This document shows positions 1,580 through 23,771 of a DNA stretch of 64,000 bases, piece after piece (position 1 is the first letter of the stretch; each line of letters opens with the position of its first letter). Under the pieces are notes generated by a model. The model saw only the letters and a list, made by a program, of their open reading frames with translations, was not told where the DNA came from and did not search any database. The translations under genes and the position numbers were made by a program. The stretch comes from Patescibacteria group bacterium (GTDB lineage Bacteria > Patescibacteriota > Minisyncoccia > Minisyncoccales > GWA2-38-27). The stretch is taken from NCBI GenBank assembly GCA_020148045.1, contig JAHCRG010000006.1, positions 137,909-201,908 on the forward strand. Reading direction: 5' to 3'.

Positions 1580-2014
1580 ATGAAACGATTAGTGATGTAT
1601 GTTATTTGCGGCATTGTTTGCGTTTTGTTTTTAATGCCGGCAACTGAAGCCACAGCCACAGAATTGGTGTTTGAGTTCATAAACCCGTCTTTCGGCGGTT
1701 CGCCGTTTAATGGACCGTGGATGTTAGCTCAAGCAGAGGCCCAGAACAAGCTCGTAGAGAAGCAAAAGCCGTTTACAATGCCAAAGAGAGACCCGATACA
1801 GGACTTTGAAGATAGTCTGAATCGGCAGATACTCTACCAGATGTCAAGAAAGATAGTGAGTTCAGCATTTGGCGAGGAAGGCCTTGAGCCCGGTCAGTAC
1901 AGCGTAGGCGATTACACAATTGATGTGACGGTTGATGTCATCAGTGGCATAAAAGTTACTATAACTGACACCGTAACTGGAAACTCAACCACTGTAAAAG
2001 TACCCTATTATTAA
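1580..2014 (+). CDS. csgF: CsgF curli assembly/channel-capping protein
   Basis: Signal peptide followed by ELVFEFINPSFGGSPFNGPWMLAQAEAQN, compared with E. coli [27 protein letters not shown]. The C-terminal DYTIDVT...VTITDTVTGNSTTVKV matches DYIVDIA...LNVTDRKTGQTSTIQV. Confidence 0.88.
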   Translation: MKRLVMYVICGIVCVLFLMPATEATATELVFEFINPSFGGSPFNGPWMLAQAEAQNKLVEKQKPFTMPKRDPIQDFEDSLNRQILYQMSRKIVSSAFGEEGLEPGQYSVGDYTIDVTVDVISGIKVTITDTVTGNSTTVKVPYY

Positions 2015-2029
2015 GAGAGGAGGTAAGAA

Positions 2030-2950
2030 ATGAGAAGAATACTGAATATTGTGATTATGGCAGCCATGCTAATGGCACTTGTTCTTCTGTCTGGCTGCGC
2101 TACTACGATGGCTTCTATGTATACCGAGCGGGCAACTATGGCATTTACTACTGCTATTCATCAGGATTTGATTTCTCTGCCTCCGCCGGAAGAAAAAATT
2201 GTGGTAGCAGTTTATAAGTTTAGGGACCAGAGCGGACAGTACAAGCCTCATCCTGCCGCAGTCAGTTTTTCAACAGCTGTTACTCAAGGAGCTACTTCAA
2301 TGCTGAATAAAGCTCTTGAAGATTCTGGCTGGTTTATCCCTATAGAAAGGGAAGGATTGCCTAACTTGTTGAACGAGAGGAAAATCATTCGTTCAACAAT
2401 GATGCAGTATCAAGCCCAAAACAGTGAAGGCGAGAATTTACCGCCTTTACCACCTTTGCTCTATGCAGGTGTACTTTTAGAGGGAGGCATAATTGCCTAT
2501 GAAACCAATTTAGTTACCGGTGGTTTCGGACTCAGATACTTTGGCTTAGGCGGTTCTACCGAGGCAAGGAAAGACCAGGTAACCATTTATTTGAGGGCTG
2601 TAGCTGTCAAGAATGGCAAGATTCTTAAATCTGTCTCAACCACCAAATCCATTCTTTCCAGAGAAGTGAATTTCGGTGTTTACAGATTTGTCAGAGTCAA
2701 GAGGTTGTTGGAGGCAGAAACCGGTTTATCCACTAATGAGCCTCCGTCAATGTGCGTCCTGGAAGCAATAGAGAAAGCTGTCTACGACCTGGTTGTAGAA
2801 GGCATTCAGGACGGCCTCTGGAATTTGAGAAATCCAGAGGACATCAACTCTCCGCTTATTCAGAAGTATTTAAAAGAAAAAGAAGCGACAGAGAAGATAG
2901 TTACCTTTGACGAAGAAGGTAACTTGGTAGCAGTTAAGGACGTTGAATGA
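2030..2950 (+). CDS. csgG: CsgG curli secretion channel lipoprotein
   Basis: Lipobox LLSGC. Full-length similarity to E. coli CsgG (VAVYKFRDQSGQYKP, STAVTQGATSML, WFIPIEREGLPNLLNERKIIR, SILSREVNFGVYRF, TNEPPSMCVLEAIEKAV). Confidence 0.92.
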   Translation: MRRILNIVIMAAMLMALVLLSGCATTMASMYTERATMAFTTAIHQDLISLPPPEEKIVVAVYKFRDQSGQYKPHPAAVSFSTAVTQGATSMLNKALEDSGWFIPIEREGLPNLLNERKIIRSTMMQYQAQNSEGENLPPLPPLLYAGVLLEGGIIAYETNLVTGGFGLRYFGLGGSTEARKDQVTIYLRAVAVKNGKILKSVSTTKSILSREVNFGVYRFVRVKRLLEAETGLSTNEPPSMCVLEAIEKAVYDLVVEGIQDGLWNLRNPEDINSPLIQKYLKEKEATEKIVTFDEEGNLVAVKDVE

Positions 2951-3053
2951 TTTCTATCCAGTATAGGCATAGACAGAGATGAAAGAAAGAGAGGTAATTT
3001 ATGAACAGAAGGATTTTAATAGTAACAATGGCTTTGGTAATTCTTCTTGGTTT
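2918..3053 (+). repeat. 136-bp duplicated block, copy 1 (csgG 3' end, intergenic region, RBS and curlin signal peptide)
   Basis: Matches 4392-4527 with a single mismatch by direct comparison. Confidence 0.9.
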
Positions 3054-3978
3054 ATCCGGCTTGGCTCTTGCTGATGGTAATACCAGCACTGTCGATCAGA
3101 CCGGCAACGACAACAGAGCTAGGGTTAGCCAAGATGGCAGTGGTAATGAAGCCACTATCACCCAGGAAGGCGATGACAACGTTGCTTCTCAGAGTCAGAC
3201 CGGCGACGAGGACATTGCCATTATCACCCAGACAGGCAATGGGAACACAGCTTACCAGTCCCAGACCGGCAGCACTAACAACCAAGCCACTATTGTGCAA
3301 AACACCAGTGGCACTGGGAATATTGCTAGCCAAACCCAGAACGGCAGTTGGAATATTGCCTTGATTCAGCAAATTGAAAGTAGTACTCTCAATACTGCTG
3401 CTCAGGTCCAGACGGGTATTGGGAACGATGCCTCGATTGAGCAGAGTGGGTCCGCAGCTGGGAACACGGCTAACCAAACCCAGATTGGAACCGGCGTCGC
3501 CTGGAACATAGCTAAGATACGGCAGAGGGGAAAAGACTCCATCGCCAGGCAATACCAGGACGGCCGTGGCAACGATGCCTATATTGGCCAGTTTTCATCT
3601 TACAACTATGCTGCACAGAACCAGACAGGTGAGTACAATGGGGCCAAGATTATGCAGTTTGCCGCACACAACATTGCTTACCAAACCCAAGTTGGTATCT
3701 CCAATATTGCTGAGATTGAGCAGCGGGGAGTTGGAAACTATGCTCGACAAAACCAGACAGGTGATGACAATGAGGCCAAAATTTCCCAGAACCCGTACCC
3801 TAGTGATGGTGGCGGCAACGTAGCTTACCAAACTCAGAACGGTAACGGCAACTATGCTGAAGCTACGCAGGTTGGTTGGAACAATTGGAGTTCTCAGACC
3901 CAGACCGGTGACTTCGATTCGAGCATTGTTACTCAGATAGGGGATGGTAATGTAGCTACGGTTGTCCAAACTCCGTAA
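3001..3978 (+). CDS. csgA: Curlin-repeat amyloid subunit (CsgA/CsgB-like), 325 aa with approx 25 strand motifs
   Basis: Signal peptide (..GLALA), then iterated Q-x-G-x-x-N-x-A-x-x-x-Q units, for example VSQDGSGNEATITQEGDDNVASQSQTGDEDIAIITQTGNGNTAYQSQ. Confidence 0.88.
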   Translation: MNRRILIVTMALVILLGLSGLALADGNTSTVDQTGNDNRARVSQDGSGNEATITQEGDDNVASQSQTGDEDIAIITQTGNGNTAYQSQTGSTNNQATIVQNTSGTGNIASQTQNGSWNIALIQQIESSTLNTAAQVQTGIGNDASIEQSGSAAGNTANQTQIGTGVAWNIAKIRQRGKDSIARQYQDGRGNDAYIGQFSSYNYAAQNQTGEYNGAKIMQFAAHNIAYQTQVGISNIAEIEQRGVGNYARQNQTGDDNEAKISQNPYPSDGGGNVAYQTQNGNGNYAEATQVGWNNWSSQTQTGDFDSSIVTQIGDGNVATVVQTP

Positions 3979-4053
3979 GTTAAGTCAATGTTTTAACCCG
4001 GAGCAATAGTGCTCCATAGAATTTTCATCTTGTCTATATTTGGAAGAAATAAA

Positions 4054-4083
4054 CCCCCACTACCAATTTCATTGGTGTGAGGG
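4054..4083 (+). terminator. Imperfect hairpin of the CCCCCAC(T/A)ACCAA...TTGGTGTGAGGG family, 3' of curlin gene 1
   Basis: cccccactaccaa-atttca-ttggtgtgaggg. A second, better terminator (gggcgagga...tcttcgccc plus T-run) follows at about 4133-4170. Confidence 0.45.
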
Positions 4084-4209
4084 TAAACCTATTACTACCA
4101 GAAATTTTTTTGAAGTTTTGGTGTGAGGGTGAAGGGCGAGGATTAAAAAAATCTTCGCCCTGTTTTTATTTTTTATTTCCATTTCCGATTTTTTTTACAT
4201 TTCTATTTT

Positions 4210-4236
4210 GCCCGAGGCCCGTCCTCGGGCAGTTTT
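4210..4236 (+). terminator. Intrinsic terminator, copy 2 of the triplicated hairpin
   Basis: tgcccgaggcccgtcctcgggca plus tttt. Confidence 0.8.
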
Positions 4237-4278
4237 GGTGTAGGGGTTGACCCCCACTTTTGTTAGTTTGAATGGAGG

Positions 4279-4307
4279 TTGACAATCTTCTTTGGTTATG
4301 ATAATTT
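4279..4307 (+). promoter_or_regulatory. Sigma70-type promoter of curlin gene 2
   Basis: TTGACA (4279-4284), 17 nt ending in TGa, then TAATTT (4302-4307). Confidence 0.6.
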
Positions 4308-4342
4308 ACAAGATATCTAAAAATCAATTCGTTAAAGGAAAA

Positions 4343-4389
4343 AATCCGAGAGGATTGATTTTTATCTTGGCGGTTCGTTTAAAACTTAA
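4343..4389 (+). promoter_or_regulatory. Conserved 5' leader element, copy 2
   Basis: Exact 47-nt repeat of 576-622. Confidence 0.55.
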
Positions 4390-4391
4390 AA

Positions 4392-4424
4392 GGTAACTTG
4401 GTAGCAGTTAAGGACGTTGAATGA
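4392..4424 (+). pseudogene. 33-nt relic of the csgG 3' end (GNLVAVKDVE-stop) carried by the duplication
   Basis: Identical to csgG 2918-2950, but no csgG body lies upstream of it. Confidence 0.8.
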
Positions 4425-4474
4425 TTTCTATCCAGTATAGACATAGACAGAGATGAAAGAAAGAGAGGTAATTT

Positions 4475-5380
4475 ATGAACAGAAGGATTTTAATAGTAAC
4501 AATGGCTTTGGTAATTCTTCTTGGTTTGTCTGGATTAGCTTTTGCCGATGGGAATGTGAGCACGGTCAATCAGACCGGCGCTGGCAATAGTGCTACGGTT
4601 AGCCAAGCTGGTATTAACAACGATGCTGAGATTACTCAAAATGGCAATGGGAACGTTTCTTCTCAGAGCCAAGCCGGCCCTGTTGGTAATAACGAAGCTA
4701 AGATTCTCCAGGTTGGTAACACGAATATTGCTTCCCAAGACCAGAGGATCGGCAACAACCTGGCCGAGATTAAGCAGACCAGTACAGGTAGCAACCTTGC
4801 TTCTCAAATCCAGTGGGGCCAATGGAATATTGCCCTGATTGAGCAAATTGAAGGGAGCAACGGCAATAGGGCTTACCAAGTCCAGCTCAGTAAAGGCCAC
4901 AATGCTTATATTAAGCAGGACGAGAACGCAACTGGCAACTATGCTTCTCAAACCCAGTCTGGTGGTCCTGGGATGGGCGGCGAGAACACCGCTGGGATAT
5001 GGCAGAGCGGAGACTCCGCCACTGCCATTCAGAACCAGACTGGTAATGTGAATGGTGCCTACATTAGGCAGAGAGGCGTTGCCAGCCGGGCTTACCAAAC
5101 CCAATATGGTATCTCCAACGCCGCCTTTATTGTCCAGTTCTCATCTGGAAACTATGCTGCACAAGACCAGACAGGTGAGGGCAATGAAGCCAGGATTCGG
5201 CAGTTTGGCGGTGACGGCAACGTAGCTTACCAAACCCAGAACGGTAACGACAACGATGCTTTCGCTACGCAGGTTGGTTCTAGTAATTTCAGTTCTCAGA
5301 CCCAGAACGGCACCAGCGATTTCAGTGTTGTCCAGCAGATAGGAAACGGTAATGTGTCTACGGTTGTCCAAAGCAACTAA
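4475..5380 (+). CDS. Second curlin-repeat amyloid subunit (CsgA/CsgB-like), 301 aa
   Basis: The first 17 residues match the 3001 gene exactly, the next 8 differ at 2 positions, and the repeats then diverge (VSQAGINNDAEITQNGNGNVSSQSQ...). The C-terminal IGNGNVSTVVQ is paralogous to IGDGNVATVVQ. Confidence 0.88.
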   Translation: MNRRILIVTMALVILLGLSGLAFADGNVSTVNQTGAGNSATVSQAGINNDAEITQNGNGNVSSQSQAGPVGNNEAKILQVGNTNIASQDQRIGNNLAEIKQTSTGSNLASQIQWGQWNIALIEQIEGSNGNRAYQVQLSKGHNAYIKQDENATGNYASQTQSGGPGMGGENTAGIWQSGDSATAIQNQTGNVNGAYIRQRGVASRAYQTQYGISNAAFIVQFSSGNYAAQDQTGEGNEARIRQFGGDGNVAYQTQNGNDNDAFATQVGSSNFSSQTQNGTSDFSVVQQIGNGNVSTVVQSN

Positions 5381-5540
5381 GTCAATGTTTTAACCCGGGG
5401 CAATAGTGCTCCATAGAATTTCATCTTGTTTATGTTTGGAAGAAATAAACCCCCACTACCAATTTCATTGGTGTGAGGGTGAAGGGCGAGGATTAAAAAA
5501 TCTTCGCCCTGTTTTTTTCGATTTTTTTACATTTCTATTT

Positions 5541-5568
5541 TGCCCGAGGCCCGTCCTCGGGCAGTTTT
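5541..5568 (+). terminator. Intrinsic terminator, copy 3 of the triplicated hairpin
   Basis: tgcccgaggcccgtcctcgggca plus tttt. Confidence 0.8.
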
Positions 5569-5584
5569 GGTATAAAAGGAAGGT

Positions 5585-5613
5585 TTGACAATCTTCTTTG
5601 GCTGTGATAATTT
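5585..5613 (+). promoter_or_regulatory. Sigma70-type promoter of the beta-barrel protein gene
   Basis: TTGACA (5585-5590), 17 nt ending in TGa, then TAATTT (5608-5613). Nearly identical to the promoter at 4279. Confidence 0.6.
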
Positions 5614-5852
5614 ACAGGATAGTTTGAAACCAATTCTTTGAAGGAAAGAATTAGGAGAATTGGTTTTTAACGGTTCTTTGAAAATTTAAGAAAGGAGGTG
5701 ATGGAAATGGAAAGAAAAATGCCAAGAGAGCCACCCGGAGAATAGATTAAGCCAGAAAATGAAGTATTTGTTTTGGCAGTCAATTGTATTTTGTAGGAAA
5801 TTTTATTGAAAAGAAACTGTTTTTTCACAATTAAATTCAGAAAGGAATTGTT

Positions 5853-6671
5853 ATGGAAAAGAGATTGTTACTGTTAGTTGTGGTGCTTGTGGTGGTTGGT
5901 TTGGGGAGTTCTCCTGCTTTTGCCTTAGACCCGATGGGGCCTCCAACAGGGAACCTGAGACAGGGGCAGTCTCAAGCAGGGATTGATTACTCCTACAGCA
6001 CAATGGACCTTAAATTAACCAACGGTAAATGGACTGAGTATAAAAATGGAAGGTTTTACGACTCAGGAGAAGCGTTTTCCTTGACCCTCAAGAATTTCAA
6101 GATGAATAAGGTATATGCCAACTTTGGATATGGCATCTTTGACAACTGGGACCTATTTTTGCGTTTAGGCGGAGCAGACGCCAAATTTGGTGACTCAATC
6201 TGGGAAGAAGGAGAAAAATTTGATGGCCCGGCTAGTTTTACAATTGGCTTTGGTACCAAAGCAACCTTTTATCAAGAGGGTCCTCTCAAATTGGGCGGAC
6301 TGTTTCAAGCAAGTTGGGCTGATTTGGATGGGCATCTAAAAGCAAAGGACTGGGCTGACTCTGTTGATATTGAGCTTACTGAGATGCAAATCGCTATAGG
6401 CCCAAGCTATGAGCTGGCAGACGGTGTTTCTATTTACGGCGGCCCCTTTTTCCATTTCGTTAATGGCGATTTAGATGATAATTTTAGTGAGACGTGGAAC
6501 GGAGATGTCTTGAGTTCGAAATACTCCTGGGATATTGGTGAGGCCTCTACTTTCGGTTATTATATTGGTTTTCAGGGAGTGAACCTCACCGAAAACATTT
6601 TTCTCAACATCGAGTACCAGCGTACAGCATCAGCTGATGCTCTTGGTCTGAAGCTCATCTGGAGATTTTAG
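5853..6671 (+). CDS. Outer-membrane beta-barrel-type protein (OMP_b-brl / porin-like), 272 aa
   Basis: Signal peptide ending in PAFA. Alternating amphipathic strands rich in G, Y and aromatic residues. The C-terminal LKLIWRF ends in Phe, a typical BAM beta-signal. Confidence 0.6.
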   Translation: MEKRLLLLVVVLVVVGLGSSPAFALDPMGPPTGNLRQGQSQAGIDYSYSTMDLKLTNGKWTEYKNGRFYDSGEAFSLTLKNFKMNKVYANFGYGIFDNWDLFLRLGGADAKFGDSIWEEGEKFDGPASFTIGFGTKATFYQEGPLKLGGLFQASWADLDGHLKAKDWADSVDIELTEMQIAIGPSYELADGVSIYGGPFFHFVNGDLDDNFSETWNGDVLSSKYSWDIGEASTFGYYIGFQGVNLTENIFLNIEYQRTASADALGLKLIWRF

Positions 6672-9513: not shown

Positions 9514-9894
9514 ATGAGTATTTTTTTGCAAGGATTAATTTGGCAGTTTTTTGATGTGCCAAAAGCAATTTTAAAGGGCTGGAAAAATTTTCTTTTGTTT
9601 AATTTAAATTATTTTTCAGTTCCTATTCTTTTGAAAACCTTTTTTTCTCATTGGCGCAGATATCATTATCCTTATGGAAAAGTATTTGAGGCATGGAAAA
9701 ACATTGAGACATTTGTTTTTAATATGATGTCCAGAATTATTGGGGCTCTTTTAAGAACCATTTTTATAATTTTGGGACTATTCATAGAAGCTTTAATAAT
9801 TTTAGGAGGAACGATAGTATTTTTTGGCTGGCTTTTATTGCCAGTTTTATTATTGGCAGGATTATTATTCGGCTTAAAGCTCGTTTTTTACTAA
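9514..9894 (+). CDS. Small polytopic membrane protein, function unknown
   Basis: 126-aa ORF with three hydrophobic segments. TATAAT (9502-9507) lies 6 nt upstream of the ATG. Confidence 0.6.
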   Translation: MSIFLQGLIWQFFDVPKAILKGWKNFLLFNLNYFSVPILLKTFFSHWRRYHYPYGKVFEAWKNIETFVFNMMSRIIGALLRTIFIILGLFIEALIILGGTIVFFGWLLLPVLLLAGLLFGLKLVFY

Positions 9895-18087: not shown

Positions 18088-20697
18088 ATGACAAAAGAAG
18101 TTGCGTGGCACAGTCTTTCTTGGAGAGAAGTGGTTGAAAAGCTTAAATCAGATTATAAAGATGGCTTAGATGAAAAAGAGGTAAAAGAGAGAAGAGAGAA
18201 ATTTGGCAGAAATTTACTTCCAAAGGAAAAGTCCCTCTCCAAATTGGAGATATTTTTAGAGCAATTCAAAAGCCCCTTAATTTATATTTTAGTGATAGCT
18301 GGAATTGTGGTTTTGTTTTTTAAAGAATTTACTGATGCTATTGTTATTTTCGGGGCTGTTATTTTGAATACTGTTGTTGGATATTTTCAGGAAAATAAAG
18401 CCAGTCAAGCCCTGAGAAAACTAAAAAAGATAGTTAAGATTAAAGCCCAGGTAATAAGAGAAGGAAATATAAAAATTATAGATTCTGGAGAATTGGTTCC
18501 AGGTGATATTTTTATTTTAAGTCCTGGAGATAAGGTACCAGCTGATGGGAGAATTATTGAAAGTTATAATTTAAAAACTAATGAAATGGCTTTAACTGGT
18601 GAATGGCTGCCAGCTGAGAAAAAATCAGATGTCCTTCCAGGGAAAACACCGTTGGCAGATAGAGATAATATGGTTTATATGGGAACGGTTACAGAAGATG
18701 GGAAGGCAAAAGTTGTTGTTACCTCAACTGGCCTGGAAACTGAAATAGGCGAGGTAGCTCAGATGGTAAAAGAAGCCAAGGAAGAAAAGACACCCTTGCA
18801 AAAGAAGTTAGCGAGGTTTGCTAAAATTGTTGGTGGAGTTATTGTAGCGATTTGTATTGTTATTTTCATTGAAGGAGTGATTACCGGAAACACTCTCTTG
18901 GAAATGTTTGAAGTAGCAGTAGCTGTGGCAGTAGCTGCTATTCCCGAGGGTTTGCCAGTAGCAATGACAGTCATTTTGGCTTTAGGGATGCAGAGAATTT
19001 TAAAAAAGAGAGGATTAGTTAGAAAACTTGCTTCAGCAGAAACCTTAGGAAGCACCAGTATTATAGCAACCGATAAGACCGCCACCTTAACAGAGGGAAA
19101 AATGAAAGTAACTGAAATTTTAACAGAAACAAAGGCAGGCCGACGTTTAGCTCTTAAGATTGCCACTTTGTGTAATGAGGCGTTTATTGAAAACCCAGAG
19201 GAGCCAATGGAAAAATGGGTTATCCGAGGCAGGCCAACAGACAAGGCATTGCTTTTGGCAGGGGTACAAGCTGGAATTAATAAAAAAGAATTGGAAAGAA
19301 AAATGCTAAAAACTGCTGAACTTCCATTTAGCACAATAAATAAATACTTAGCTCGGGCATTTGCCTTAAGTAAAAAAGAAGACATCCTTTATATTTCTGG
19401 GGCCCCTGAAAAAATATTGGAAATATCAAAATATTTAAGAAAAGGCAATAGGGAAATACCCCTGACCCCAGAGATAGAAGATAAAATAAAAGCTGAATTG
19501 GAGGAGTTGACCGGGGAGGGATTGAGAGTAGTAGCTGTTGGTTATAAAAAAATTAAGAGCTTGAAAAGTTTTTTTGATAATTTGGTTTTTGTTGGCTTAA
19601 TAGCCCTAAAAGACCCGGTTAGGAAAGAAGTGAAAAAAGCAATAAAAATCTGCCGACAGGCAGGGATGAAACCGATTATTGCTACTGGCGACCACAAGTT
19701 AACAGCAAAGGCAGTAGCTCAGGAATTAGGATTTAAAGTAAAGGAAGAAAATATTATGGAAGGCAGAGAATTAGATAAACTTTCAGACAAAGAATTTGAA
19801 AAGAGGGTAAAAGATATTCAGATTTATGCCCGAGTTGAACCGAAACATAAAATGAGAATTATTCAGGCCTGGCAGGAGAAAGGGGAAGTAATAGCAATGA
19901 CTGGAGATGGAATTAATGACGCCCCAGCTTTAAAGAAAGCTGATATTGGAGTAGCTTTGGGCTCGGGCACAGAAGTTGCCAAAGAGGTTTCTGACCTTGT
20001 TTTGCTGACTGATAATTTCAATATCATTGTAGCTGCAGTAGAAGAGGGGAGAGCGATTATTGATAATGTCCGCAAGGTAATTACCTATCTGCTTTCTGAT
20101 TCTTTTACTGAAACAATCTTGATTGGAGTAGGTCTTTTCTTTGGTTATTTACCAATTACTGCTGTCCAAATTTTATGGGTAAATCTTATTGAAGACGGTC
20201 TTCCTGATATTGCTTTAGCTTTTGAGCCAAAAGAAAAAGATTTAATGAAGCAAAAACCTCAGGGTCATGATATGCCGCTTTTGAATCGAGAAATGAAAGT
20301 ATTGATTTTTATTATTGGGATAATAACTGATCTCTTTCTTTTAGGATTATTTTTCTGGCTTTTAAAATATTCTAATTATGAAATTCCTCATATTAGAACA
20401 GTGATTTTTGGGGGATTAGCCATAGATTCGCTTTTTTATGTTTTTTCTTGCAAAAGTTTAAGAAGGAATGTCTGGCATATAAATCCGTTTTCTAATAAGT
20501 TTTTAGTTTTTGCCTGGGTTTTCGGCGCTCTAACCCTTATCGGAGCCATTTATCTATCTCCGCTTCAAACTCTTTTGAAAACCGTGCCCCTAAATCTTTT
20601 TGATTGGGGATTACTTTTAACCCTTGGTCTTATTAATTTAATTTTGATTGAGGCTACGAAACATTATTTCATTGTGAGGCATCAAACTGATATATAA
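18088..20697 (+). CDS. P-type ATPase, type IIA/IIB cation (Ca2+)-transporting family
   Basis: Cation_ATPase_N-like start, DKTATLT phosphorylation site, TGDGINDAPALKKADIGVA, 10-TM architecture. Confidence 0.88.
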   Translation: MTKEVAWHSLSWREVVEKLKSDYKDGLDEKEVKERREKFGRNLLPKEKSLSKLEIFLEQFKSPLIYILVIAGIVVLFFKEFTDAIVIFGAVILNTVVGYFQENKASQALRKLKKIVKIKAQVIREGNIKIIDSGELVPGDIFILSPGDKVPADGRIIESYNLKTNEMALTGEWLPAEKKSDVLPGKTPLADRDNMVYMGTVTEDGKAKVVVTSTGLETEIGEVAQMVKEAKEEKTPLQKKLARFAKIVGGVIVAICIVIFIEGVITGNTLLEMFEVAVAVAVAAIPEGLPVAMTVILALGMQRILKKRGLVRKLASAETLGSTSIIATDKTATLTEGKMKVTEILTETKAGRRLALKIATLCNEAFIENPEEPMEKWVIRGRPTDKALLLAGVQAGINKKELERKMLKTAELPFSTINKYLARAFALSKKEDILYISGAPEKILEISKYLRKGNREIPLTPEIEDKIKAELEELTGEGLRVVAVGYKKIKSLKSFFDNLVFVGLIALKDPVRKEVKKAIKICRQAGMKPIIATGDHKLTAKAVAQELGFKVKEENIMEGRELDKLSDKEFEKRVKDIQIYARVEPKHKMRIIQAWQEKGEVIAMTGDGINDAPALKKADIGVALGSGTEVAKEVSDLVLLTDNFNIIVAAVEEGRAIIDNVRKVITYLLSDSFTETILIGVGLFFGYLPITAVQILWVNLIEDGLPDIALAFEPKEKDLMKQKPQGHDMPLLNREMKVLIFIIGIITDLFLLGLFFWLLKYSNYEIPHIRTVIFGGLAIDSLFYVFSCKSLRRNVWHINPFSNKFLVFAWVFGALTLIGAIYLSPLQTLLKTVPLNLFDWGLLLTLGLINLILIEATKHYFIVRHQTDI

Positions 20698-20712: not shown

Positions 20713-21750
20713 ATGATTTGGTTATTCATTTTTATAATCTCTTGTTTCGTCTTATTCTGGTCAGGTTCCAGGTTAGTTAAAGGCCTAATAAGAATGGCTC
20801 GGTATTTAGGTTGGCGGGAGTTTGTAGTAGCTTTTTTTGTTATGGCTTTTGCTGGTACTCTCCCTAACCTATTTGTTGGAATTAATTCGGCTTTGCATGG
20901 AATCCCCCAGCTTTCTTTTGGAGAAGTTGTCGGTGGGAATGTTGCTGATTTAACTTTAGCTGTGGCTTTGGCTATTTTAATCGGCGGCACCGCCCTGCAA
21001 GTTAGAAGTAAAATGGTTCAGACCAGCACTATTTTTACTGTTGCAGTCGCCATTTTACCTTTAATTTTAATCTTGGATGGAAATTTAGGAAGGGGCGATG
21101 GTTTAATTTTACTTTTAGCTTTTGGTCTGTATATCCTTTGGCTTTTTTCAAAAGAAGAAAGATTTAGAAAGGTTTATAAAGGAGATAAATATAAAGAAAA
21201 TAAAAATAAAGAAAATAAAAACGAACAGGGACACAACCTACGGTTTATAGATTTTTTAAGGAACAGAAAAGAGCCAAAAAGTATTAGACGGTTTAAGACC
21301 TTTTTAAAAGATTTAAGAAAGATAACAGTGGCTTTAATTTTACTTTTAGCAGCTTCCTGGGGAGTGGTCCAAAGTGCTCAGGTTTTTGCTGATGCATTAA
21401 ACGTTACCCTTCCAATAATTGGGATTTTAATTGTTGGATTAGGAAATGCCCTCCCAGAAACTTATTTTGCCATTGTTTCGGCAAGAAAACGACATACCTG
21501 GCTGATTTTAGGAAACTTAATGGGCTCGGTTATTGTTTGTGCTACCCTTGTTTTAGGAATCGTTGTTTTAATTCACCCAATTAAAGACATTGACTTTTCT
21601 CCTTTTGCTATTGCTCGTATCTTCCTTATAATTTCAGCTGTATTCTTTTTGATAGTTGTTAGAACCGATCAAAAAATCACTAAAATAGAAGCTTTTCTCC
21701 TGCTGGGAATTTACATCCTTTTTCTTGTAGCTGAAATATTCTTCAGATAA
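20713..21750 (+). CDS. Ca2+/Na+ (CaCA, YrbG-like) antiporter family membrane protein
   Basis: Two alpha-repeat motifs (GEVVGGNVADLTL and GLGNALPETYFAIVSA) separated by a charged cytoplasmic loop. Confidence 0.8.
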   Translation: MIWLFIFIISCFVLFWSGSRLVKGLIRMARYLGWREFVVAFFVMAFAGTLPNLFVGINSALHGIPQLSFGEVVGGNVADLTLAVALAILIGGTALQVRSKMVQTSTIFTVAVAILPLILILDGNLGRGDGLILLLAFGLYILWLFSKEERFRKVYKGDKYKENKNKENKNEQGHNLRFIDFLRNRKEPKSIRRFKTFLKDLRKITVALILLLAASWGVVQSAQVFADALNVTLPIIGILIVGLGNALPETYFAIVSARKRHTWLILGNLMGSVIVCATLVLGIVVLIHPIKDIDFSPFAIARIFLIISAVFFLIVVRTDQKITKIEAFLLLGIYILFLVAEIFFR

Positions 21751-21876
21751 AAAAAGGAAGGCTGCTTGCTGCAATACCTTCCTTGTGGCATTGTGGAGGA
21801 TAAGGCATTAGCCTTGGCAGAACTTCGTGGGGAACTTCCAAAGCCATGTCTGACACGATGCCATTTCCGTCGTTCT
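21749..21876 (-). ncRNA. Candidate small RNA (approx 128 nt) with its own promoter and terminator and an exposed CCUCC
   Basis: On the minus strand: TTGACA (21912-21907), 18 nt, TATAAT (21888-21883), then hairpins, then GGAAGG-N15-CCUUCC plus U7 (21782-21749). No ORF is present, and it lies between convergent units. Confidence 0.5.
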
Positions 21877-21921
21877 ATTTTCATTATAGACTCATCATTT
21901 ACATCCTGTCAAGGGGAATCA

Positions 21922-21942
21922 CTACGAGAACAGTTCTCGTAG
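21922..21942. promoter_or_regulatory. Perfect 21-bp palindrome CTACGAGAAC-A-GTTCTCGTAG, copy 1
   Basis: Direct reading. Lies 9 bp upstream of the -35 of the sRNA candidate promoter. The second copy is at 22294-22314. Confidence 0.5.
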
Positions 21943-21983
21943 AAATAAAGCAGGCCGAAAGTTTAATCTCTCGGCCTTTTGGT

Positions 21984-22217
21984 TTATTGCTGAGAATATG
22001 CTTTGGGTTGACCAAATCTTCTTCTCCTTTCTTTTTGGAAATGTCGCAAGAAACTTATTGCTAAAATCAGGCAGAACATATCCGAGAAGCCTGCTAGGTA
22101 GTACCCAAGATAGTCAGGGTTATTCATTAGGTCTAATAAGTTTCCTCTCATGAATATGGCCAAAAGAATTATAAAGAAAATACCATATTGAAGACAATTT
22201 TTCTCTGTTACATTCAT
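21984..22217 (-). CDS. Small two-TM membrane protein (77 aa) with a basic C-terminal tail
   Basis: RBS aggagg 5 nt upstream. Flanked by the duplicated promoter block and the double hairpin. Confidence 0.6.
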   Translation of the reverse strand: MNVTEKNCLQYGIFFIILLAIFMRGNLLDLMNNPDYLGYYLAGFSDMFCLILAISFLRHFQKERRRRFGQPKAYSQQ

Positions 22218-22230
22218 AACTACCTCCTTT

Positions 22231-22291
22231 TAAATTTTGAAGTTGCTTTTGTTTAATATATATTATCGTAATATTTTAAATTTGTCAAAAG
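22231..22291 (-). promoter_or_regulatory. 61-bp duplicated promoter block, copy 1
   Basis: On the minus strand: TTGACA (22288-22283), 17 nt, TAATAT (22265-22260). Two mismatches to 22634-22694. Confidence 0.65.
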
Positions 22292-22293
22292 AA

Positions 22294-22350
22294 CTACGAG
22301 AACAGTTCTCGTAGAAATAAAACAGGCCGAAAGGTTTTTGTCTTTCGGCC
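22294..22350 (-). terminator. Palindrome copy 2 plus GGCCGAAAG hairpin (terminator of the 79-aa gene)
   Basis: Repeat of 21921-21980. ggccgaaag...ctttcggcc with flanking A/T runs. Confidence 0.6.
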
Positions 22351-22615: not shown

Positions 22616-22633
22616 CTTTTCTCCTTTACTTAT

Positions 22634-22694
22634 TAAATTTTGAAGTTACTTTTGTTTAATATATATTATCGTAATATCTTAAATTTGTCAAAAG
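22634..22694 (-). promoter_or_regulatory. 61-bp duplicated promoter block, copy 2
   Basis: TTGACA at 22691-22686 and TAATAT at 22668-22663, on the minus strand. Confidence 0.65.
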
Positions 22695-22733
22695 ATAATT
22701 GATTTTTTATTGGAAACATTGTAAGATGAGGTA

Positions 22734-23771
22734 ATGATGGAGTATATAATCGGAATTTTAATATTAATTATTGTTGGTTTGGCAGTGGGGCTTTTTTTAT
22801 TATTGAGAAAAAAACCAGAAAAGCAGTCAGATGCATTAGTGATGCTTCAGCAGCAAATGAATCATATTAGTCAGGTTTTAGATAGTAAATTGTCTGAATC
22901 AACTAAAGCCATCCAAGCCCAGTTTGGACAAAGCGCTAAAATTATTCAGGATGTTACAGAAAAACTTACTCGGCTTGATGAAACCAATAAACAGGTTGTA
23001 AGTTTCGCTGATCAATTGAGAAATTTACAGGATATTTTAAAGAACCCAAAGCAAAGAGGGGTTTTAGGAGAGTATTATTTAGAAACTGTTTTGAAAAATG
23101 TCTTGCCTCCCGGCTCATATCAAATGCAATATCCATTTAAGGATGGAACTATAGTTGATGCTGCAGTATTTATTGATAAACGGATTATTCCAATTGATTC
23201 TAAGTTTAGTTTAGAAAATTACAATAGAATATTAGAAACAAATAACCCCGAAGAGAAAAGAAAATACGAAAGAGCTTTTATAAATGATCTTAAAATTAGA
23301 ATTGACGAAACATCAAAATATGTAAAACCAGAAGAAAACACAATGGATTTCGCTTTTATGTTTATTCCTTCAGAAGCAGTTTATTATGATTTGCTTATTA
23401 ATAAAGTTGGAGCGGTTACTGATGATACCAATAATTTGATTTACTACGCTGGCAAGAAAAAAGTTATAGTTATTTCTCCTACTTCTTTCTTGGCATATTT
23501 GCAAACTGTTCTTCAAGGACTAAGAAACCAAAAGATTTCAGAACAGGCCAGAGAAGTGATTAGAGAGGTTGAGCGTTTGGGCAGGCATTTGGGAAGTTAT
23601 AGTGAATATATGAAAAAACTTGGAAATCACTTGGGCACAACTGTAAGTACTTATAAAAAGGCCCACAAAGAATTTGCCAAAGTTGATAAAGATGTGGTAA
23701 AAATTACTGGTACAGGGTCAAAAATAAAACTCAAAGAACCAGATATTGAACCACCATTATTAGAAGAATAA
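22734..23771 (+). CDS. rmuC: DNA recombination protein RmuC
   Basis: N-terminal TM, coiled-coil, then NPKQRGVLGEYYLETVL and the RmuC nuclease-like C-terminal region. Confidence 0.85.
   Translation: MMEYIIGILILIIVGLAVGLFLLLRKKPEKQSDALVMLQQQMNHISQVLDSKLSESTKAIQAQFGQSAKIIQDVTEKLTRLDETNKQVVSFADQLRNLQDILKNPKQRGVLGEYYLETVLKNVLPPGSYQMQYPFKDGTIVDAAVFIDKRIIPIDSKFSLENYNRILETNNPEEKRKYERAFINDLKIRIDETSKYVKPEENTMDFAFMFIPSEAVYYDLLINKVGAVTDDTNNLIYYAGKKKVIVISPTSFLAYLQTVLQGLRNQKISEQAREVIREVERLGRHLGSYSEYMKKLGNHLGTTVSTYKKAHKEFAKVDKDVVKITGTGSKIKLKEPDIEPPLLEE

Follow-up and report, generated by a model that had tools for sequence, protein, structure and literature searches.

We analyzed 64,000 nucleotides (nt) of DNA (the window) from a Patescibacteria group bacterium (contig JAHCRG010000006.1, positions 137,909 to 201,908) and examined a short unit on its minus strand, located between the genes of a Na_Ca_ex family exchanger and RmuC (Table 1). 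A first-pass annotation, made from the sequence alone, had proposed that this unit is a stand-alone small RNA (sRNA) gene with an exposed CCUCC resembling an anti-Shine-Dalgarno (anti-SD) sequence. The results revealed that the unit is conserved in four genomes with invariant hexamers and terminator, that its helices carry compensatory changes, and that no known family explains it. On this evidence the stand-alone sRNA proposal is well supported, and the element is very likely a real non-coding RNA gene. The anti-SD part of the proposal found only partial support, as described below.

Transcription signals and coding potential

The first-pass annotation had described a near-consensus promoter, and the site at 21912-21883 (TTGACA-18-TATAAT) obtained the full promoter scan score of 12/12. 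It is the sole TTGACA-N16-18-TATAAT match within the 64 kb; 0.03 matches were expected, and at least one was obtained in 3 of 100 shuffled sequences. The terminator follows approximately 127 nt later on the minus strand, and the GGAAGG-N15-CCUUCC-U7 arrangement given in the annotation was recovered exactly. The terminator reaches 2 nt into the stop codon of the convergent 345-aa Na_Ca_ex (antiporter) gene, the last two U residues of the U-run falling within the TAA at 21748-21750. Transcription is expected to stop at this terminator, which is a strong intrinsic one, and nothing was found downstream of it except the 3' end of the convergent exchanger gene. When the shared hairpin is read on the plus strand, UUGUGG follows and no U-run is present, leaving the exchanger without a good plus-strand terminator.

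The transcript start was placed approximately 6-7 nt past the -10 box and the 3' end inside the U-tract. As the annotation had noted, the segment is richer in GC than its surroundings (48.5% for 21755-21884 vs approximately 35% for the window). The 129-nt RNA has a folding energy of -40.5 kcal/mol (z = -2.7), a value matched by 1 of 200 shuffled sequences. The orientation of the RNA follows from the promoter and the U-tract. Folding energy does not tell the strands apart: the sense strand was more stable in three of the four homologues described below, and the antisense strand was more stable in the window.

We found no credible open reading frame (ORF), in agreement with the annotation. The sole ATG-led ORF (57 aa) starts within the -10 box; its counterpart meets a stop after 5 codons in one homologue (L004) and lies in a different frame in another (L017). 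The indel lengths between homologues are not multiples of three, no ORF is conserved across the four, and a Pfam search yielded no match. The unit shows the generic features of a stand-alone sRNA gene: it has a promoter and an intrinsic terminator of its own, and neither the interval between the two nor the sequence downstream contains an ORF.

Table 1. Features of the RNA unit and its neighbours, in window positions
Feature	Coordinates	Strand	Basis or remarks
-35 hexamer TTGACA	21907..21912	-	Scan score 12/12; sole promoter of this kind in the window; unchanged in L002, L004 and L017
-10 hexamer TATAAT	21883..21888	-	18-nt spacer after the -35 hexamer; hexamer and spacing identical in all four homologues
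Predicted sRNA transcript, about 127-129 nt	21749..21877	-	Covariance-model matches; both ends predicted
5' tail, unpaired, A/G-rich (UAGAACGACGGAAAU)	21863..21877	-	Mean P(unpaired) 0.92-0.99 in all four homologues; AUAGAA kept
P1, 5' strand (GGCAUCGUG)	21854..21862	-	Partner 21795-21787; 94% of cells paired
P2, 5' strand (AGACAU + GGCUUUGG)	21838..21851	-	Partner 21817-21803; both-side changes in 4 of 14 pairs (four sequences)
Apical region (AAGUUCCCCACGAAGUUCUG)	21818..21837	-	GAAGUUC present twice
P2, 3' strand (CCAAGGCU-A-AUGCCU)	21803..21817	-	Model-based alignment and RNAalifold
C/U-rich internal loop UAUCCUC, unpaired	21796..21802	-	Predicted unpaired in all four; sequence itself not conserved
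P1, 3' strand (CACAAUGCC)	21787..21795	-	Model-based alignment and RNAalifold
Intrinsic terminator (AAGGAAGG, loop, CCUUCC(UU), U-run)	21749..21784	-	AAGGAAGG 21784-21777, 15-nt loop 21776-21762, CCUUCC 21761-21756, U7 21755-21749; GGAAGG, CCUUCC and U6-7 kept in all four; 97% of cells paired
P-type cation ATPase	18088-20697	+	Neighbour gene
Na_Ca_ex family exchanger, 345 aa	20713-21750	+	Neighbour, convergent to the RNA gene
Small hydrophobic protein, 77 aa	22217-21984	-	Neighbour, upstream of the RNA gene
Small hydrophobic protein, 79 aa	22615-22376	-	Neighbour, upstream of the RNA gene
RmuC	22734-23771	+	Neighbour; then L21, RecR, DnaB

Homologous units in related genomes

We compared the exchanger locus in 24 related contigs (cited by L numbers). 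The relatives of the exchanger gene were all from metagenome-assembled genomes of Patescibacteria, or the candidate phyla radiation (CPR). The conservation in related genomes that the annotation had named as a check was observed: three homologues of the element were identified, in L002, L004 and L017, on the same strand and at the same site between the exchanger stop and rmuC start codons. In all four sequences, including that of the window, the perfect hexamers lie 18 nt apart around a spacer of diverged sequence, the transcript begins near AUAGAA, and the terminator consists of GGAAGG, a loop of diverging sequence, CCUUCC and U6-7. Outside these conserved signals, the four diverge by roughly 20-40%.

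A covariance model was built from the sequences of the window, L017 and L002 (scores of 114.7, 134.4 and 123.5 bits, respectively), with L004 left out; the model detected the held-out L004 at 40.7 bits (E = 2e-8). The same search of the window and 23 related loci revealed no further match and no second copy. Sequence and structure are thus conserved in related genomes, as is generic for sRNA genes, in a small sample of four. The element probably represents a new family, restricted to its lineage, within the known class of stand-alone sRNAs.

A common RNA fold

Independent minimum free energy folds of the four sequences revealed a common architecture of tail, P1, P2, apical region, internal loop and terminator. 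The tail comprises 15-22 nt, P1 9 pairs, P2 at most 14 pairs and the apical region 18-20 nt; a C/U-rich internal loop of 7-10 nt is located on the 3' side between P2 and P1 in every homologue. Both pairings proposed in the first-pass annotation, that of GGCUUUGG (21845-21838) with CCAAGGCU (21817-21810) and that of GGCAU (21862-21858) with the second AUGCC (21791-21787), proved to be parts of this conserved fold.

In the model-based alignment of the four sequences, 90.9% of the pair cells hold standard pairs, compared with 34-53.5% in slid controls, in which the 3' partners were displaced by 1-3 columns. Five pairs carry compensatory changes on both sides, a count that 10 of 500 shuffles reached; the slid controls had 0-1 such pairs. 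P1 contains A-U to G-C compensatory changes in addition to G-U or U-G variants. The covariation score was 0.194 against a shuffled mean of 0.133 and was reached in 6 of 500 shuffles. RNAalifold predicted the same helices without being given them. For four sequences, this structural evidence is good but not overwhelming. Three conserved parts of the RNA are predicted to be unpaired in the four homologues, namely the 5' tail, the C/U-rich loop and a small number of nucleotides in the apical region.

Within the apical region, CACGAAGUUC is kept in the window, L017 and L002, and the corresponding region of L004 resembles its reverse complement. The apical 19-20 nt of L004 (5190-5215, minus strand) match the reverse complement of the L017 segment at 3065-3090, with a 10-nt exact run (CTTCGTGAGA); this match was better than the direct alignment, and its score was reached in 5 of 5000 shuffles. 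The hairpin tip of L004 may therefore be inverted, perhaps between the arms of stem P2. If the inversion is real, the apical segment is unlikely to serve as a base-pairing seed.

The C/U-rich loop and ribosome-binding sites

The single-stranded stretch that the first-pass annotation had placed between the AAUGCC repeats turned out to be shorter than proposed. UAUCCUC (21802-21796) is predicted to be unpaired for the most part, whereas stem P1 takes up the final C of CCUCC (21799-21795 on the minus strand) and the AC that follows it. The loop reads UAUCCUC in the window, GACCCUC in L017, UCAUUCUU in L002 and CUUCCUGA in L004, and it is always pyrimidine-rich. What stands of the proposed exposed anti-SD sequence is thus an unpaired C/U-rich loop in all four homologues; the CCUCC itself is present in two of them, and no target stands out in the 64-kb window.

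We counted SD usage among the 58 listed genes of the window. A 4-mer SD core precedes 13 of the 58 and GGAGG precedes 2 (csgG and the 77-aa gene), rough counts given that the starts were taken from the longest ORFs. A TATAAT-like box lies 5-9 nt before the ATG of many window genes, such as those at 9514, 20713, 40737 and 55309, which suggests widespread leaderless mRNAs. Since SD-led genes are a minority, an anti-SD RNA would be selective and act on few genes; a general anti-SD role appears unlikely, and a selective role would be possible.

A curli (type VIII secretion) gene set occupies window positions 1580-6671 and comprises CsgF (1580-2014), CsgG (2030-2950), two proteins with curlin repeats whose genes are preceded by the same 25 nt (3001-3978 and 4475-5380), and a weak outer-membrane beta-barrel match (5853-6671). 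Its GC content is 40-46% (approximately 35% elsewhere), and the contig is otherwise typical of Patescibacteria, which are generally thought to lack an outer membrane. The curli set could be a product of horizontal transfer or of chimeric assembly.

An accessory gene at an intergenic hot spot

The RNA gene is accessory, occurring in four lineages of one Patescibacteria clade with tiny genomes and missing from most relatives. In at least 12 related loci without the gene (L001, L005, L006, L014, L015, L016, L018, L020, L022, L024, L151 and L009/L011), the spacer between the exchanger gene and rmuC measures merely 40-60 nt. When the exchanger proteins were placed in a neighbour-joining tree, carriers and non-carriers were mixed, with the four carriers in two sub-clades, so that several losses or several gains are needed. 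The indel boundaries are clean, and the junctions of filled and empty sites fit insertion and deletion alike. This distribution excludes a housekeeping RNA such as signal recognition particle (SRP) RNA, 6S RNA or RNase P RNA, and the absence of an Rfam match does so too.

The same site holds other insertions in other genomes. In L003, L007 and L025, a Y1 transposase (PF01797) is inserted there with the palindrome CTACGAGAACAGTTCTCGTAG on its flanks, and in L025 and L026 the site contains an 82-aa gene without the RNA. With the RNA present in some genomes and absent from others at a fixed site, this intergenic region is a hot spot where genes come and go, although the genomes are otherwise streamlined.

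Several further features of this site were recorded. The perfect palindrome CTACGAGAACAGTTCTCGTAG has only two copies in the window (21922-21942 and 22294-22314); it lies at 5010-5032, 5228-5249 and 5761-5786 in L003 and is also found in L007 and L025. Together with the Y1 (IS200-like/RAYT-like) transposase, it looks like a system of repetitive extragenic palindromes (REP) and REP-associated tyrosine transposases (RAYT) in Patescibacteria. The 77- and 79-aa proteins of the window are unrelated to each other and have no Pfam match, and their genes are cassette-like: the 63-nt promoter and 5' untranslated region (UTR) are 97% identical between the two (22230-22292 vs 22633-22695), and both cassettes end in GGCCGAAAG...CTTTCGGCC terminators that resemble each other, with the same palindrome of 21 nt behind them. 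The 82-aa gene of L026 has the same type of terminator as these cassettes. L004 (5005-5135) and L019 (3008-3075) carry an extra insertion of 60-130 nt directly after the exchanger stop, composed of repeated GAATCAAGGTTCT hairpin units and with approximately 15 nt of the gene end duplicated (TTATTTCAAGAATAT); it looks like a small element resembling a miniature inverted-repeat transposable element (MITE). In L021 (2740-2830), an N run and a duplicated exchanger gene end mimic a 200-nt intergenic gap; this apparent gap is a scaffolding artefact and holds no copy of the RNA gene.

Proposed function and alternative explanations

In the explanation we prefer, a consensus sigma-70-type promoter would drive a minus-strand RNA of about 125 nt that folds into an unpaired A-rich tail, a long hairpin with a C/U-rich internal loop on its 3' side, and a terminator. 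Such an RNA would most likely act in trans, as a riboregulator that base-pairs through its conserved unpaired segments, and the leading candidate segment would be the C/U loop, paired with the purine-rich ribosome-binding sites of the SD-bearing minority of mRNAs. That the element is a real non-coding RNA gene and also has some trans-acting base-pairing role is a combination toward which we lean slightly. Anti-SD pairing as its mechanism is doubtful. A dedicated riboregulator that shuts off the SD-led minority through the C/U-rich loop (in the window, the curli genes, which look horizontally acquired, and the cassettes for small membrane proteins) is distinctly unlikely; if true, no trans-acting regulatory sRNA would have been described in the CPR before it.

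Several observations weigh against this explanation. Besides the window, L017 alone has CCUCC; L002 has CCCUCAUUCUU and L004 CCCUUCCU. The loop is short, and its pairing to the SD of csgG or of the 77-aa gene, which belong to the two gene groups suggested as targets by the first-pass annotation, would amount to 5 base pairs (bp) only. A duplex scan of the translation-start regions of 65 script-called ORFs was at background, with scores like those of random windows, and no convincing target emerged in the window. Elsewhere in the window, neither the apical loop nor the 5' tail has an exact or near-exact complement, and the apparent inversion in L004 argues against a seed role of the apical segment. 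With only four homologues, the covariation statistics are modest. The gene is missing from L024, which is the closest relative (90% exchanger identity), and from at least 11 other relatives, and its function is therefore dispensable.

The negative target searches in the window would be accommodated if the RNA bound a protein, as a sponge, scaffold or decoy, through its hairpin and perhaps through the repeated apical GAAGUUC/CUUCU motif. A motif is duplicated in the apical region of all four homologues, and the structure is more strongly conserved than any single-stranded sequence. However, the RNA contains no recognizable motif of a known protein-binding class, no neighbour gene co-occurs with it (it stands alone in L002, L004 and L017), and the apical inversion in L004 would change a single-stranded protein site; we consider protein binding unlikely. 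A role in cis would make the act of transcription, or antisense overlap, matter more than the fold: convergent firing would block or trim read-through from the ATPase-exchanger genes into rmuC-rplU, or the RNA would be antisense to the exchanger 3' UTR. The constant orientation and site of the unit, the lack of a good plus-strand terminator for the exchanger and the distance of just 40-60 nt between exchanger and rmuC in non-carriers are consistent with such a role. Pure transcriptional interference, however, needs no compensatory changes that maintain helices, the strong terminator with no antiterminator alternative makes antisense run-in to the exchanger unlikely, and most relatives do without the unit, so that a cis role is improbable. 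The patchy presence on the exchanger tree and the clean indel boundaries also suit a palindromic or mobile insertion at the DNA level (REP- or MITE-like) whose promoter-like and terminator-like ends are incidental. The REP palindromes and Y1 transposase at this site in L003, L007 and L025, the small gene cassettes in the window and L025/L026, the hairpin insertion in L004/L019 and the possible inversion of the hairpin tip in L004 point in the same direction. Against a mobile insertion, each locus has one copy and none was added by the search of the window and the 23 related loci, no other context was seen, and phage, plasmid and viral-contig searches gave no match; the perfect hexamers, their 18-nt spacing and the orientation of the U-tract are kept despite roughly 20-40% divergence elsewhere, which points to selection for transcription. 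We regard this explanation as very improbable.

The position of a structured RNA directly before a terminator and convergent to cation-transporter genes recalls an orphan riboswitch or attenuator, a leader that would sense a ligand or signal and control termination and antisense read-through to the cation-transport operon; the C/U-rich loop is similar in sequence to the 3' half of the terminator stem, and that of L004 contains CCUUCC itself. When the transcripts are truncated before this 3' half, however, GGAAGG pairs with the C/U loop in none of the homologues. It is fully unpaired in three of the four, and its partial pairing elsewhere in the window RNA gains 0.2 kcal/mol. No Rfam riboswitch match was obtained at E <= 10 and no ORF lies downstream; mutually exclusive terminator and antiterminator structures with a regulated downstream gene were thus not found, and a riboswitch or attenuator is hardly credible. 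Equally hard to credit is a type I antitoxin RNA for the adjacent small membrane-protein genes, or a small-protein gene in the element itself. The 77- and 79-aa hydrophobic-protein genes do lie directly upstream on the same strand, but complementarity to their mRNAs extends over at most 9 consecutive nt (shuffled mean 9.3), L002, L004 and L017 have the RNA without the small genes, and L025 and L026 have the small gene without the RNA. The missing complementarity and co-occurrence largely refute the antitoxin proposal, and the nonconserved reading frames and the ATG within the -10 box argue against a small protein.

To our knowledge, almost no regulatory RNAs of Patescibacteria (CPR) have been described, and full-text literature searches on CPR regulatory RNAs found nothing relevant. 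The RNA is predicted to be strongly expressed and is a candidate for the first CPR sRNA family. We expect its impact to be moderate, as that of a lineage-restricted, dispensable sRNA without a known target.

Searches of RNA families and other sequence collections

A scan of the window against Rfam 15 at gathering thresholds returned three tRNAs only. At E <= 10, the region 21650-22050 yielded only an 11.7-bit fragment of a long non-coding RNA, and L002, L004 and L017 yielded just sub-threshold terminator-like matches over the element. Membership in any Rfam 15 family (RsaE, csRNA, SRP RNA, 6S, Y RNA, riboswitches and leaders) was rejected, the gathering threshold not being reached. A likeness to SRP RNA (the common GCCAAGGC/AAGCAGCC) was dropped, with no Rfam match and with the terminator loop that carries it not conserved.

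Beyond the related loci, the metagenome pattern TATAATGAAANTAGAAN{5,25}GGNNTCGTGT returned only L012, probably by chance and with no covariance-model match; the pattern was too strict, L017 carrying GAACAATAGAA. The L012 segment at 1185-1295 (JGI contig Ga0153915_10255757) covers the promoter and 5' UTR that belong to a cold-shock gene resembling cspA in a GC-rich organism and has TATAATGAAAATAGAAG and GGCGTCGTGTCG in common with the 5' part of the RNA. In viral contigs, a loose pattern gave 120 chance matches and a stricter one gave 5 matches, none with covariance-model support. BLAST searches of phages and plasmids gave short chance matches or none.

Comparison with known systems

REP/RAYT (Y1) elements show a presence/absence polymorphism similar to that of the RNA gene, and a copy of the palindrome CTACGAGAACAGTTCTCGTAG sits 9 nt upstream of its -35 box. 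Unlike a REP, the RNA gene is no palindrome copy, is single-copy in the loci searched, and has transcription signals and covarying helices.

Among sRNAs, the csRNAs (cia-dependent, Streptococcus) are also small, non-coding and terminated, with an anti-SD-like CCUCC in an unpaired region. Their promoters have the CiaR repeat TTTAAG-N5-TTTAAG in place of the -35 box, whereas the window RNA has a perfect TTGACA. The sequence upstream of its -10 box (TTGACAGGATGTAAATGATGAGTC) contains no TTTAAG repeat, and assignment to the CiaR regulon was rejected; the window RNA also differs from csRNAs in having no Rfam match and no identified anti-AUG element.

RsaE/RoxS of Bacillales (RsaE = RF01820) is likewise a stand-alone RNA of approximately 100-130 nt with its own promoter and an intrinsic terminator, found in low-GC hosts, and pairing of its unpaired C-rich motifs with G-rich ribosome-binding sites has been proposed or demonstrated. 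The window RNA differs in that it has no match to this family in sequence or structure, even at E <= 10, in that its C/U stretch forms one asymmetric internal loop and not several hairpin loops, in that its C/U sequence is not conserved, and in its host phylum, Patescibacteria. By analogy, the element may work like the C-rich-seed stand-alone sRNAs of low-GC bacteria (RsaE/RoxS and the csRNAs) while being a member of neither.

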